Below, piece after piece: positions 1,498 to 57,838 of a stretch of DNA of 64,000 nt (the stretch's first letter is position 1; every line of letters begins with the position of its first letter). Where the stretch lies: the IMG/VR virus record IMGVR_UViG_3300028139_000001, positions 1 to 64,000 of that record; one strand, given 5' to 3'. The notes beneath the pieces were generated by a model. It made no database searches. It saw only the letters and a program-made list of their open reading frames with translations, and was not told the DNA's origin. The position numbers and the translations under genes are program-made. This stretch comes from a virus (taxonomy: Duplodnaviria > Caudoviricetes).

Positions 1498-1643
1498 ATG
1501 TTATATTTTCCAATAAATATGTCTTTTCTTAAGGTTTGGCTGTAACTATACCCGTTATATTAACAGTAGCTTTTGTAATTGTAGCTGAAAGAAAAACAAT
1601 GGCATTCGCATGCAGTAAAAAAAGACTGGTACCTAATGCAGTG
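1498..1643 (+). pseudogene. nad1: Degenerate nad1 5' fragment
   Basis: ATG TTA TAT TTT CCA.. then frameshifted VTIPVILTVAFVIVAERKTMA / MQ / RLVPNAV, matching the Nad1 N-terminal AERK..MQRR.GPN motif; stops and frameshifts present. Confidence 0.75.
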
Positions 1644-2061
1644 AGTAGTCCGACCAAAGTGAACGAGGCGGGGTTACGCTTTAGAGAGTAAACGTGGTTG
1701 AAATTTTCCGAAATTATAACTATAAAAAAAAAGGATTTTAATGAACGTGAAGCTATTCTTAATAGTTCCCTTAGTAACTAGGGAAACCGCTCACAAAATT
1801 ATTACGAGGTTCGTACACGAAATCACCGAATTAATTGGGAATCTTCCAGAGTTTAATACGATATAGGGGCCGTTAATAGAGAGGTGTGCGAGTGCCACAC
1901 TACTATTTATTGCTATTTTTGGACATGTAGCCAGGTTGCCGGAGGATATTATTTGGGTAGTATTTTGATCATCTTTTTTATGTATGTTAAGATCTTATTT
2001 CATCAATAAACAAAAAAGGAATCAAAGAAACATCGAAAAGGAAAGAAAGAAATAAAGAAAA

Positions 2062-2112
2062 CCTCGGCGTCTTCGAGACAACGTCTCGAAGACTGAGGCT
2101 GCTGCGCTGAGG
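2062..2112 (-). repeat. GC-rich palindromic element (GTCTTCGAGAC..GTCTCGAAGAC family)
   Basis: Reverse complement of elements at 48046-48096 and 49796-49852. Confidence 0.85.
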
Positions 2113-2298
2113 AAAGAAAATATTAGGGTATACTTTAAAAAATAATAACAAAAAATTTAAGGATATCTAGGTTAAATAATATTAACTATGTAAATATATT
2201 TGTAGGTTCGAATCTTACAATATCCAAGAGTGAAAGGTTAAACGGTTAAGGGCGTCCTTTCACTTTTTTCCTTTTTGTTTTACTTTAAATTATTAATA

Positions 2299-3010
2299 AT
2301 GAAAATGAATTGAAACAAAATTTTATTCTTTTTTAAAAAGAATTTTATTTTTTTTTTGCGGCGAAGCAGCCCTAGTCTTCATCAGATGCCGGGCTATTCT
2401 CTTTGTAGGGTATGCTTCGAGATTTGTTCTTAATTGTTGTGATATAAATGTATTTGCGGATTATAATACTATAATCTCTATTATTTACTATTTAAATGTG
2501 AGTTGTATTATAGTTTATATTAATAATATGGATTTAAATTTTAATGGTTTAAAACATATTTGTTTGGGTGATATTACATATGACAATATACTAAATACTA
2601 TTAAACTTATGATAGATAGTAGTGATAGGAGTAAAATGAATATGCATTGAAAGGGTTATTCTTTATACGATAACGATAAGGGTAATAAAATAGGTAGTGT
2701 TATGTTTATGAATAATCCTAAAGGAGGTAATCAACAAGGTGGTAATTATCAAGGAGCTAATCCACAAGGTATTATTGATAAAAGAGGTAACCAACAAAAC
2801 CAACAAGGTGGGGAACAAGATGGTGATCAGGGTAATCAGGTAGGTTATACAGGGCCTTCAAGGATTACGGGTGGAGAACCAACGGATATTCCTGAACTTT
2901 ATCTTACAGATAAAAAACGTTTGGTTATTTTTTTTAAGCGAAGCCGAAAGAATAAGAGATGGAAAGGATGATTTAACACCGTTAAATTTTATGGGTACCC
3001 CCCAATTTAA
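2299..3010 (+). pseudogene. Orphan membrane/low-complexity ORF, 5' end frameshifted at a GC-rich insertion (~2357-2395)
   Basis: Code-4 frame open 2300-3010: FVGYASRFVLNCCDINVFADYNTIISIIYY..MFMNNPKGGNQQGG (Q/G/N-rich). An upstream ATG at 2299 is in another frame. Confidence 0.55.
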
Positions 3011-55600: not shown

Positions 55601-56762
55601 GAAAGATTATTTTCATATTCCGGAAAATTGTAATTTACCCGGTATATACTGTTTTATAAGTAAAGATGGTTTATCTTATTATATAGGGTCGTCTTTGAAT
55701 ATGCGAACTAGATATAATCGTCATTTGTTTAATTTAAAACAGAATTCGGATTCTAATTAAAGATATTCTGAAGCTAACCCTAAATTTTATAATTATATGA
55801 ATAAATATGGCTTAGATAGTTTATCTTTTTGCTGTTTATTAGTAATAAAAACTATCTTGGCATGTTTACCGGATTTAACCTTTCTGAAGAAGAAAAGGGG
55901 GTTTTAACTGCACTAATGCAATTAGATCTCTTAATTACTGAACAATTTTTTTTTAGATACTTTCGGTTTTTCATTAAATGTTGCTCCAAAAGCAGGTACG
56001 AGAGAAAATAGTATATTGTCTGATGAAACCAGAAAAAAAAATGAGTGATGCTCATCTAAACTTAGATATTACGCTTTCGGAAGACCAATGAAAAGCAATT
56101 AGAGCTAAAGCTGCTGAAGCTTGAGCGAAGGAAATACCAGAAAGCGAAAGAAGAATAGCTATAAATTAATTTAACGGTAGAGCTGTAATTGTAAAAGACT
56201 CTAATCAAAAAGTAATTGGAGAATTTAATTCTATAGTAAAAGTAGTGGAATATTTACATGTTAATCGTAATAAAAATAAGTCTTTATCTAAAGTCAGGGG
56301 ATTTATTGGAGAGTAGAATAGGACCTGTACTATTGATAGAAAAAGAGGGCTCAGTTAGTGAGCGTTTCTATAAAATCCAAGTTTTGGATATAAATAGAAA
56401 TCTATTGGATACCTACAGTAGCTTAAGGGCTGCAGCTAAAAGTTTGGGTATTTCCCCTTCTTCCTTTAGTACAACCCACTCCGGTAGGAGTAGGTTATGT
56501 AAAGGTAAATACTACTTTATAAAATGTGTATAATCTTCTTTATATTCTATTTATATACAAATGTCTTTTCACCCAGAATATTAATTAAAGTGCTTATCTG
56601 TCTAATTCATAATTATTAATAAATAAAATTGATTAATTACATTAAAATATCGTAAAAATCTTGCAATGTAGCGAAATTTGTGGAATTTTGCACAGTTCTA
56701 TGCCCATTGTTGTAGAATCTGTATCTATTGAGAAATTCCTTTTGTGATTACAGGAGCAATAA
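46681..56762 (+). CDS. cox2: Cytochrome c oxidase subunit 2; exons 46681..47004,51362..51547,53373..53480,56664..56762; 5' fused to cox1
   Basis: [27 protein letters not shown]|HQWYWSYEY, TAAD|[11 protein letters not shown]|[20 protein letters not shown]. Confidence 0.95.
48046..48096 (+). repeat. GC palindromic element, 48-nt in-frame insertion in a LAGLIDADG ORF
   Basis: [23 protein letters not shown]. Confidence 0.9.
49796..49852 (+). repeat. GC palindromic element, 54-nt in-frame insertion in a LAGLIDADG ORF
   Basis: [25 protein letters not shown]. Confidence 0.9.
50877..51335 (+). CDS. Duplicate of the cox2 exon 2 start fused to an orphan ORF (152 aa)
   Basis: [25 protein letters not shown] then unrelated sequence to TAA 51333-51335; preceded by a copy of the intron 3' end. 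Confidence 0.8.
51548..53372 (+). mobile_element. cox2 intron 2, group I (IC2-like)
   Basis: AAATTCCGGGGACACC..CAACGAGTAGACGG..GTATACTCTAGTC. Confidence 0.9.
52088..53259 (+). pseudogene. GIY-YIG ORF, frameshifted near 52590 and interrupted near 52975-53070
   Basis: [20 protein letters not shown]. Confidence 0.8.
53961..55136 (+). CDS. GIY-YIG endonuclease (C-terminus probably frameshifted)
   Basis: [20 protein letters not shown]; open in code 4 to TAA 55134-55136. Confidence 0.8.
55359..56533 (+). pseudogene. Degenerate GIY-YIG gene
   Basis: [20 protein letters not shown]; internal TAA and frameshifts. Confidence 0.75.
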
Positions 56763-57697
56763 TGGTGTATATATTTAATATAGTTAAAAGGGTAAATAAC
56801 TCTTGTGTCATATCACAATCTAAATGCCATTATTTATCTAAACCTCACGTTTTTTCTTCTATGCCATTGCAAAGTGGTATATTTACTATTAATAGAAAAT
56901 TTATTATTGGTTTAGTTAGTAGTATTATTACTGCTGCCATGGGCTACGGAATAAGACTGATTCTCTTGCATTATTTAGAACATGACGTTTTTACTGATTT
57001 AGATAACTGAATAGCTAGCTTGAGTTATTTTTGCTCTTTAGGTGCTATTCGCTTTGTAATTAATGAATGTCTTAAAGAAAATACTTTCCTAATGTCTTAT
57101 TGTGGTGGTCCTATGGGAGTTTCTAACAATACAGCTGGAAGTGGTTCTTTACCTGTTGGTAGTAATGCAGCTGGGTATAATAGTTCTATGCAAGCTCCTA
57201 ATTCTTCAGATATTGGTAATTATAGTGCCGGTTCTAGTTCTATTCCCGGTACTGCAGTACCGGGTAGTACTGCAGATCACAGTACTACTGGTTTAGGTAG
57301 TTCTAGTGGAGGTGATGCTTCAATTACAAATGACCGTTCAAAATTAGAGCATAGAATTAGTAAAGTACAAGATAAAGTACAATACTTTGGGGAACAACTT
57401 GAAGGAGCTAAACAGGACTATAATGAAGTTATATCTAAACAATCTGAGTATGTAACCCACGGTAAAGCAGAGGAATGACAGAGGGAATATATTGAAGCTG
57501 TGTCTGCAGTAAAGGATTCTGAAACCAATTTATCTAGTGAAATTAGAATGCACAATGTATTACAAAAAAAACTAGTAAACGGTGATTATTCTATGTCTGG
57601 TACATCTACTACTACTAAACGTAGACTTAGTGATTGTTCTATGGCTAATTATGGTTCTAGTACACCCACTAATACTAAACGTACATCTGATGGTTAA
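56762..57697 (+). CDS. Orphan ORF (311 aa): TM segments, Ser/Gly-rich tract, predicted coiled coil; ATG overlaps the cox2 TAA
   Basis: Three track ORFs joined by TGA=Trp; TAATG at 56760-56764. Confidence 0.75.
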
Positions 57698-57760
57698 TAA
57701 CTACATTTGTGTAGTTAAAAAGCTTACTGATATTATTTTTTATAATATCAGTTAACGATG

Positions 57761-57838
57761 ATCTTACACAGTTTTATGCCCATTATTGTAGAATCTGTAT
57801 CTATCGAGAAATTCCTTTCTTGGTTACGAGAACAATAG
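57761..57838 (+). pseudogene. cox2: Duplicated cox2 3' end
   Basis: [25 protein letters not shown]. Confidence 0.92.

Follow-up and report, generated by a model that had tools for sequence, protein, structure and literature searches.

The 64,000-nucleotide (nt) stretch of DNA analysed here, positions 1 to 64,000 of IMG/VR record IMGVR_UViG_3300028139_000001 (hereafter the window), comes from a large Pleosporales-type fungal mitochondrial genome whose cox1 and cox2 share a single reading frame. Five open reading frames (ORFs) in it, termed O1 to O5, had been noticed by a sequence-only reading, which took them for orphan, possibly mobile non-endonuclease ORFs that duplicate pieces of host genes. 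We consider it somewhat better than an even bet (probability about 0.55) that they represent fast-evolving, non-nuclease accessory genes for membrane proteins, which persist by borrowing the ends of host genes and relocate by recombination or repair. Our comparisons show relocation and module exchange by recombination in the group of O3 and O5, and make them likely for O1. Most of the ORFs proved not to be orphans: four of the five have homologues (47 clusters for O3, 12 for O1, 3 for O2, and 34 for O5). The suggestion of a second class of element gained support from the recurrence of the O3 block with other host genes, but the five ORFs are not one class by sequence in profile comparisons with hhalign. 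All window features listed below are on the plus strand and were translated with the mould mitochondrial code.

O3 and the relocation of its block

Self-BLAST of the window in 600-nt chunks and pairwise alignments confirmed three duplications of host-gene pieces, at the cox2 3' end, the acceptor of cox2 exon 2, and the cox1-cox2 junction, which are far beyond chance and had been correctly seen by the sequence-only reading. The first of them repeats the final ~26 codons of cox2 (56685-56761) at 57761-57837 with 85.7% identity over 77 nt (E 4e-20). The upstream copy is the functional tail: it is in frame with the CuA motif (CSEICG), bears the stop codon, and belongs to the last cox2 exon (56664-56762, QCSEICG...LQEQ and stop). 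The downstream copy, without CSEICG, is a displaced cox2 3' remnant, and an equivalent remnant stands behind O3 homologues in almost every locus. Between the two copies lies O3, an ORF of 311 codons (56762-57697) whose ATG shares one base with the cox2 stop (TAATG).

O3 begins with a short leader and a mimic of the Cox1 tail (56840-56875, K-P-H-x-F-S-S-M-P-L-Q-S), continues with a core of two transmembrane (TM) helices (56891-57082), which has 18 invariant columns in the family alignment (A4), and a variable Gly/Ser/Asn low-complexity stretch (57083-57331), and closes with a helical hairpin (57332-57598) predicted by AF2 at a pLDDT of 93-98. Foldseek with the O3 model returned generic helical hairpins (Vipp1, F-BAR, HlyD), none of them at E <= 0.001. 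The homologues are 45-86% identical, and the named ones come from Ascochyta lentis and Exserohilum rostratum, both Pleosporales. We rejected the O3 body as a diverged cox2 copy, since hhalign against the tail-linker-cox2 sequence found only the Cox1 tail to be shared. We put down to coincidence a resemblance between cob exon 1 and the cox2 tail read in frame 2.

Exact look-ups and a metagenome scan placed the O3 family in at least six contexts across other genomes. In 11 distinct contigs, among them those of Ascochyta lentis and the window's own species (L012), the gene stands immediately behind the cox2 stop. Elsewhere, the homologue is fused in frame to a duplicated host-gene start: the region upstream of nad1 together with 27 codons (L009, L010, L020; an intact nad1 lies some hundred bases further on), a copied cob exon 1 (L003, again ahead of an intact cob), or a copy of the cox1 5' end (L008, L026). 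It also stands in frame after complete nad3 (L005, L045) and after nad5 (L018). In nearly all contexts, a cox2-tail remnant is found 40-100 nt behind the ORF, followed by a conserved element of ~160-180 nt. A cox2 tail beside nad3 or cob can only have come together with the O3 ORF, and the travelling tail thus indicates at least five joint relocations of the gene and its remnant, in each of which the 5' end of the recipient gene was duplicated anew. The comparison of loci shows that the O3 gene and the cox2-tail remnant were copied as one block to other gene ends. One genome (L008) holds two diverged tandem O3 copies, and truncated or decayed copies are present in L044 (truncated) and L045. 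Accessory ORFs that continue the nad3 frame without a stop also explain why nad3 is overcalled as proteins of 398-486 amino acids (aa), namely at L005:1786-2982 and in P0116, a nad3 fused to an O5-type gene.

The conserved intergenic element behind the remnant occupies 57880-58065 in the window. A copy at 1232-1387, downstream of nad5 and upstream of a nad1 fragment, is 72% identical over 164 nt to 57907-58065, and a partial copy lies at 18976-19018. Almost every related locus has the element behind nad5, a cox2 tail, or a tail remnant (for example, L008 2470-2619, 3856-3997, and 5635-5818). It might serve as a signal for RNA 3' ends or processing, or as a substrate for recombination. In L011, a 322-aa ORF (10517-11485) occupies the place of O3, 8 nt after cox2 and without a cox2-tail remnant behind it. 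It has a hydrophobic start, an acidic Asp/Pro/Gly stretch, and a repeat-rich coiled coil, and was rejected as an O3 homologue, as O3 had no tblastn match in L011 and dN was about 1.

Mobile ORFs (mORFs), or free-standing homing endonuclease genes at gene 3' ends with a duplicated C-terminus, are described for atp6 of Allomyces and for atp6, atp9, cox2, and nad3 of Glomus (PMC3630166), and in Saccharomyces the start of COX2-ORF1/F-SceIII overlaps the cox2 end (10.1101/028324), just as that of O3 does. In mORFs as at O3, an in-frame copy of the host's own tail ends the host gene, followed by the inserted ORF and the displaced tail remnant. Cox2 and nad3 are targets in both. MORFs are co-transcribed with the host gene, as O3 may be, although contigs cannot prove this. 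The terminal duplication by which mORFs are recognised is found at O3 and at O4. This identical geometry favors an account in which the ORFs are selfish passengers: neighbouring homing endonucleases would cut the DNA, and the ORFs would spread horizontally through these double-strand breaks, being moved in trans. So does the start of the O3 duplication, 21 nt downstream of the insertion site of a GIY-YIG intron in cox2. We nevertheless regard this account as unlikely. The boundary of the cox2-tail duplication is identical in intron-less cox2 genes, which implies one old duplication event, and the O3 insertion is old and widespread, not isolate-specific like those of mORFs. Whereas mORFs bring a foreign upstream end and leave a displaced end that matches relatives, the upstream tail at O3 is the conserved one (93-100% identical to the reference tail) and the downstream remnant is degenerate (56-96%), the opposite of a recent foreign replacement. 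Further unlike mORFs, the window cargo lacks LAGLIDADG and GIY-YIG and has predicted TM helices and a hairpin, O3 carries a Cox1-tail mimic, and the O3 element also occurs in mirrored form, fused to the duplicated nad1, cob, and cox1 5' ends.

O1, O2, O5, and O4

O1 (31251-32585) is a cox1 intron ORF in frame with a genuine cox1 exon (31119-31250, ...DRNFNTSFF...YQHLF, motifs unique in the window); the next cox1 exon pieces are at ~33512 and ~36277. According to alignment A5 and an AF2 model, a mimic of the Cox1 C-terminal tail (31299-31361) stands at its beginning and a mimic of the mature Cox2 N-terminus (32550-32582) at its end, where 32545-32611 matches 46673-46739 with 82% identity over 67 nt. 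In between are four tandem ~60-nt repeats (31396-31693, 77-91% identical, local GC 37%) encoding a 20-aa repeat, a helical hairpin (~31779-31952), a Q/P/T low-complexity stretch (31956-32072), a motif of 11 residues that is invariant in the family alignment (32073-32105), a TM bundle (32190-32492), and a Cys-rich segment (32493-32552). The tandem repeats are peculiar to the window copy and absent from all 12 homologue clusters. One homologue, P0055, consists of an rps3 5' copy, a Cox1 tail, and an O1-type gene.

The template of the mimics in O1 and O3 is the resident cox1-cox2 junction (46486-46739), a continuous frame in which the Cox1 tail (46486-46524) is joined by a ~52-aa linker to the mature start of Cox2 (from 46681), so that the last cox1 exon runs into cox2 without an intervening stop. 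Such a single cox1/2 ORF has been reported in Pleosporales (PMC5626475; PMC8956966), and Acanthamoeba is cited in the first of these papers as having a single cox1/2 ORF and one transcript. Unlike at the resident junction, the junction pieces of O1 and O3 flank or precede unrelated cargo and lie outside the junction. The resident junction is itself an insertion hot spot. Its linker is hypervariable: RNA contigs of other organisms match both sides with different letters between (joints 46524 to 46678), and in L015 (139-590) it contains a Cys-rich insert of ~120 aa that ends in a degenerate copy of the Cox2 start (CDTARHAMILF).

O2 (starting at about 23400 and ending at 24476) is a C-terminal extension in the cox1 intron after GTGWT. 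The frame ahead of it (22119-23399; Pfam COX1 and LAGLIDADG_1) comprises cox1 exon 2 and an in-frame LAGLIDADG intron ORF, so its attachment to an endonuclease gene stood as originally described, but no host-gene duplication flanks it. A TM-rich part (23589-24068), an Asn-rich and acidic part (24069-24221), and a conserved C-terminal domain (24264-24473, alignment A6) can be distinguished. The three homologues (49-67% identity) reside in the same cox1 intron, and in two of them (P0061, P0063) O2 is intact behind a decayed LAGLIDADG part. This persistence points to selection on O2 independent of the nuclease, and it also agrees with the selfish-passenger account, as does the attachment to a LAGLIDADG gene. 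O2 is absent from the close relatives L006 and L007 (an indel of ~1.2 kb), whose neighbouring GIY-YIG ORF is 90-94% identical to that of the window; their LAGLIDADG gene stops shortly past the second motif, and the homologues in these two loci align to aa 12-450 only.

O5 is a stop-to-stop frame of 236 codons (2300-3010) in the gap between nad5 and atp6, with a TM domain (2372-2527) and a G/N/Q low-complexity stretch (2711-2839). No ATG, GTG, or TTG lies ahead of the TM domain, and the first listed start codon is at 2498. Of the 34 cluster representatives found by phmmer among 1.84 billion, 12 matched at E <= 1e-10, and the family combines a conserved TM domain with variable low complexity (alignment A7). 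One homologue (P0065) is on a 1.5-kb contig without neighbour genes. Upstream of O5 lies a 5' pseudo-fragment of nad1 (1498-1643, about codons 1-47), starting with MLYFP at 1498 and continuing with ...AERKTMAF; tblastn matched it to residues 14-47 of the nad1 N-terminus at 72%, and a stop and a frame change separate the two parts. The duplicated nad1 end pointed out earlier is therefore real, albeit frameshifted; O5 is ~650 nt away, and we found nothing that links the fragment to it. No further nad1 motif is present within the window. The gap between the fragment and O5 also contains a short hairpin-like element (2058-2124), of which copies at 48034-48100 and 49796-49856 (inverted), 88-95% identical, fall inside two LAGLIDADG ORFs of the first cox2 intron.

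The third duplication, 50863-50952 versus 51348-51437 (94.4% over 90 nt, E 2e-35), comprises 13 nt of the intron 3' end and 77 nt of cox2 exon 2. Its first copy provides a decoy 3' splice site with the first 77 nt of exon 2, and its second copy leads into the true exon 2 (51348-51547, exon 51362-51547), as identified from RNA contigs. The homologous cox2 intron of L010, L030, and L031 lacks the first copy and enters exon 2 directly, and the window has ~650 extra bases (50697-51348) with the decoy and O4. O4 is a tail of 127 codons (50953-51335) in frame with the decoy copy. The description of the cargo as TM segments plus low complexity held for O1, O2, O3, and O5 and failed for O4, which has no TM segment. 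Tblastn found no match to O4 in the 49 fetched loci, no database-scale search having been made, and its 127 novel codons are within the length range of antisense ORFs in the window (up to 165 aa). Loose ends of RNA contigs join exon 1 (end 47004) to 51362, the distal acceptor, whereas no use of the decoy acceptor at 50876 was seen among the reported RNA contig ends, and an RNA contig across the decoy and O4 has intron-level depth.

Family relations, selection, and RNA

Pfam searches at E <= 1 found no LAGLIDADG, GIY-YIG, reverse transcriptase (RT), or polymerase domain in the cargo of O1, O2, O4, and O5 or in 30 O3 members, in agreement with the sequence-only reading, and no match to family B DNA polymerase or phage-type RNA polymerase (dpo/rpo) in any cargo. 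RVT_1 and Intron_maturas2 domains were confined to the atp6 intron ORF at 6570-9236, with none in O1 to O5. A profile of 30 O3 relatives against PDB sequences gave coiled-coil noise only, and AF2 with Foldseek gave TM helices and generic helical hairpins only. Remote endonuclease or plasmid-polymerase fragments, which had been considered as another identity of the ORFs, thus left no signal in Pfam, the PDB profile, or the structural models.

The frames stay open across all homologues of the O1, O2, O3, and O5 families in DNA of ~27-31% GC, and the alignments show these four, by the measure of sequence conservation, to be real conserved coding families in other mitogenomes. They share a plan in which TM helices are combined with a disordered segment of low complexity and either a helical hairpin or a conserved domain of small size. 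The accessory genes form at least three or four families. O3 and O1 profiles have only the Cox1 tail in common (hhalign E 1.5e-5), and so do the O3 and O1 families with the resident junction (E 2.5e-5 and 4e-9). Having found nothing beyond the tail with hhalign, we rejected O1, O2, and O3 as one family. The TM cores of O3 and O5 aligned weakly (48 columns, E 0.0015, probability 17%). However distant these cores, the protein P0070 has an O5-type N-terminal domain (E 1e-26 to O5) and a C-terminal half that matches its counterpart in the O3-type P0045 with 68% identity (E 4e-56), a mosaic which indicates that C-terminal modules were exchanged between O3- and O5-type genes.

Could the ORFs be neutral by-products, that is, decayed endonuclease or plasmid genes or chance recombination frames? 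O4 would fit this description, given its lack of a TM segment and of relatives in the 49 loci, its intron-level RNA, and its antisense-range length; the missing start before the conserved domain of O5 and the frameshift in the nad1 fragment point the same way. As a general explanation it is nonetheless very improbable. The families of O1, O2, O3, and O5 keep long open frames across dozens of diverged AT-rich sequences, they have conserved cores and motifs such as the 11-residue motif of O1 and the TM core of O3, and residual nuclease or polymerase similarity is missing even at the permissive Pfam threshold. Conservation refutes the by-product origin for O1 to O3 as families, while it stands for O4. 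Under the reading that accessory genes borrow host-gene ends, such events most likely left O4 and the nad1 fragment behind as debris without function.

Selection was assessed with our own script for NG86 estimates of nonsynonymous (dN) and synonymous (dS) divergence, which are rough on short, AT-rich, indel-rich genes. The dN/dS check proposed together with the ORFs gave a divided answer: the O3 TM core is constrained in most genome pairs (0.04-0.47), and the low-complexity and hairpin parts are not (0.5-3.6). Overall, dN/dS of O3 is 0.45-2.2 against 0.00-0.07 for cox2 in the same genome pairs, and genomes with identical COX2 proteins have O3 proteins that are only ~65-70% identical. For O2, the value between the window and L011 is 0.77. 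The dN of accessory ORFs exceeds that of adjacent core exons 4-10 fold or more (window and L001-L025), and O1 diverged far more than its neighbours between the window and L006 (dN 0.39 versus 0.03 for the neighbouring GIY-YIG ORF), as would suit a selfish passenger. The dS of O3 (0.08-0.23) and O2 (0.25) is 2-6 fold below that of cox2/cox1 exons (0.26-0.97) in the same genome pairs. Low dS may mean that the elements are younger than their hosts, as expected of passengers, or may reflect composition bias of the method. Maximum-likelihood trees, one of O3 and one of the cox2 3' part, are star-like and resolve only the grouping of the window with L013, and being uninformative they speak neither for nor against horizontal spread.

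RNA data came from contigs of two phyllosphere metatranscriptomes (X1, X12); two raw RNA-seq runs of the labelled organism (X19, X20) contributed no reads. Their joints confirm the cox2 introns from 51547 to 53373 and from 53480 to 56664. In X12, contigs wholly inside O3 have a depth of 2279-2973, compared with ~210-300 for introns and ~9,700-26,000 for exon bins, and in X1 the O3 depth is 133 versus 15-29 for introns. The depth of O3, about ten times that of introns, indicates that O3 RNA is stable well above intron level. The O3 contigs begin at the exon-4 boundary and run on downstream, although contigs cannot prove one transcript.

Several of these results would also fit domesticated, vertically inherited, lineage-specific genes, for example, helpers of the fused Cox1-Cox2 precursor, with the various contexts due to the shuffling of gene order in Pleosporales. 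O3 stands right after cox2, with an overlapping or adjacent start, in the 11 contigs mentioned; its RNA is well above intron level, its TM core is under purifying selection, and no supported conflict exists between the O3 and cox2 trees. O1 occupies the same intron in several genomes, L006 and L007 among them. We take this possibility seriously but consider it improbable. Outside the O3 TM core, dN/dS is about 1 or higher; copies have decayed (L044, L045), been doubled in tandem and diverged (L008), or given way to an unrelated ORF after cox2 (L011); and O2 is missing from relatives with a nearly identical neighbouring intron ORF. Moreover, plain rearrangement does not predict fresh duplications of host 5' ends together with a carried cox2-tail remnant.

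In the reading we prefer, the accessory genes would have no expression signals of their own and would live off the ends of host genes. They might do so by the stop/start overlap with cox2, by joining in frame a duplicated 5' end of nad1, cob, cox1, or rps3, or by extending nad3 or a cox1 exon that lies ahead of them. The mimics of the Cox1 tail and the Cox2 start could correspond to the cleavage sites that normally separate the Cox1-Cox2 polyprotein, so that the cargo would be cut free from its fusion partner, and the cox2 tail with the conserved downstream element would supply RNA 3'-end signals. Relocation would proceed by recombination or break repair, possibly at breaks made by resident endonucleases, and would not be an activity of the cargo. 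The sequence-only reading had also entertained reverse transcription, which no feature requires. A more ambitious form of the idea, in which the mitochondria of Pleosporales would harbor a pool of membrane-protein genes, selfish or driven by conflict and devoid of a mobility enzyme, that spread and persist by mimicry of the Cox1-Cox2 polyprotein, with mimics excising the cargo, captured host ends giving expression signals, and modules being exchanged, is one we entertain as doubtful.

Several points weigh against the preferred reading. By sequence, the cargo families are not demonstrably one class. The role of the mimics as cleavage sites is something that we purely infer, and the accessory families are known here as DNA and RNA contigs alone, of which the latter cannot show ends, strand, or translation. 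The dN/dS values carry the roughness mentioned above, and the star-like trees demonstrate neither horizontal spread nor strict vertical descent. O4 is most likely a by-product with no sign of function, and O5 of the window, having no start before its conserved TM domain, may be decaying. Finally, most recovered O3 loci are at the cox2 3' end, which may fit a resident lineage-specific gene as well as a mobile one.

Window setting and related systems

The remaining features of the window are those of a mitochondrial genome rich in introns and endonuclease genes. The end of nad5 (1-399) is followed by atp6 (4828-9600), which contains an intron ORF of the LAGLIDADG type and a group II RT/maturase. 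Endonuclease genes crowd the region 10096-18760, and beyond it come the intron-rich cox1 (20393-46524), cox2 (46681-56762), and cob (exon 1 at about 59742-59900); trnG and trnC are present as well. Rfam detected one group I and one group II core in the whole window, and none mapped around O1 or O4. Within the first cox2 intron, one frame (46630-49161) joins cox2 exon 1 with LAGLIDADG_1 and then LAGLIDADG_2, representing two endonuclease genes. Relative to L006 and L007, an indel of ~1.4 kb (25928-27322) with flanks 92-94% identical holds a GIY-YIG remnant ORF containing NUMOD.

In plants, the chimeric mitochondrial ORFs of cytoplasmic male sterility (CMS) combine pieces of standard genes with sequence of other origin, encode membrane proteins, lie beside essential genes with which they are co-transcribed, and are born by recombination; the phenotype they cause is inherited through the cytoplasm and countered by nuclear genes. 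The O1 and O3 families resemble this general picture in joining fragments of standard mitochondrial genes (the Cox1 tail, and nad1, cob, cox1, nad3, and rps3 in homologues) to unrelated sequence, in their predicted TM helices, and in their place beside essential genes. Unlike CMS ORFs, they are fungal, conserved across many genomes, have a core under purifying selection, and relocate as blocks. Like intron-encoded group I proteins, O1, O2, and O4 continue the frame of the cox1 or cox2 exon ahead of them. Unlike intron-borne homing endonucleases and maturases, however, O1 and O4 contain neither an endonuclease nor a maturase domain, O2 comes as an additional module after a LAGLIDADG gene, and O1 has copies of the cox1-cox2 junction at both ends.

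Papers on fungal mitogenomes attribute differences in size and gene rearrangements to introns, endonucleases, and plasmids (PMC5626475; PMC8956966). We found no paper describing the present families, and mitogenome papers list such frames as hypothetical proteins. The present analysis shows that several of these "hypothetical protein" frames belong to conserved families with a common architecture, a host-derived tag, and a record of repeated takeover of host-gene ends. For annotation, this means that decoy splice acceptors, duplicated gene ends, and in-frame fusions mislead gene callers. For the biology of these mitochondria, it raises the questions of how proteins are released from the fused Cox1-Cox2 precursor and whether fungal mitochondria harbor non-nuclease selfish or regulatory genes comparable to the CMS ORFs of plants. 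If the mimicry reading is true, these genes would be a fungal counterpart of the plant CMS genes, heritable as conserved relocating families.

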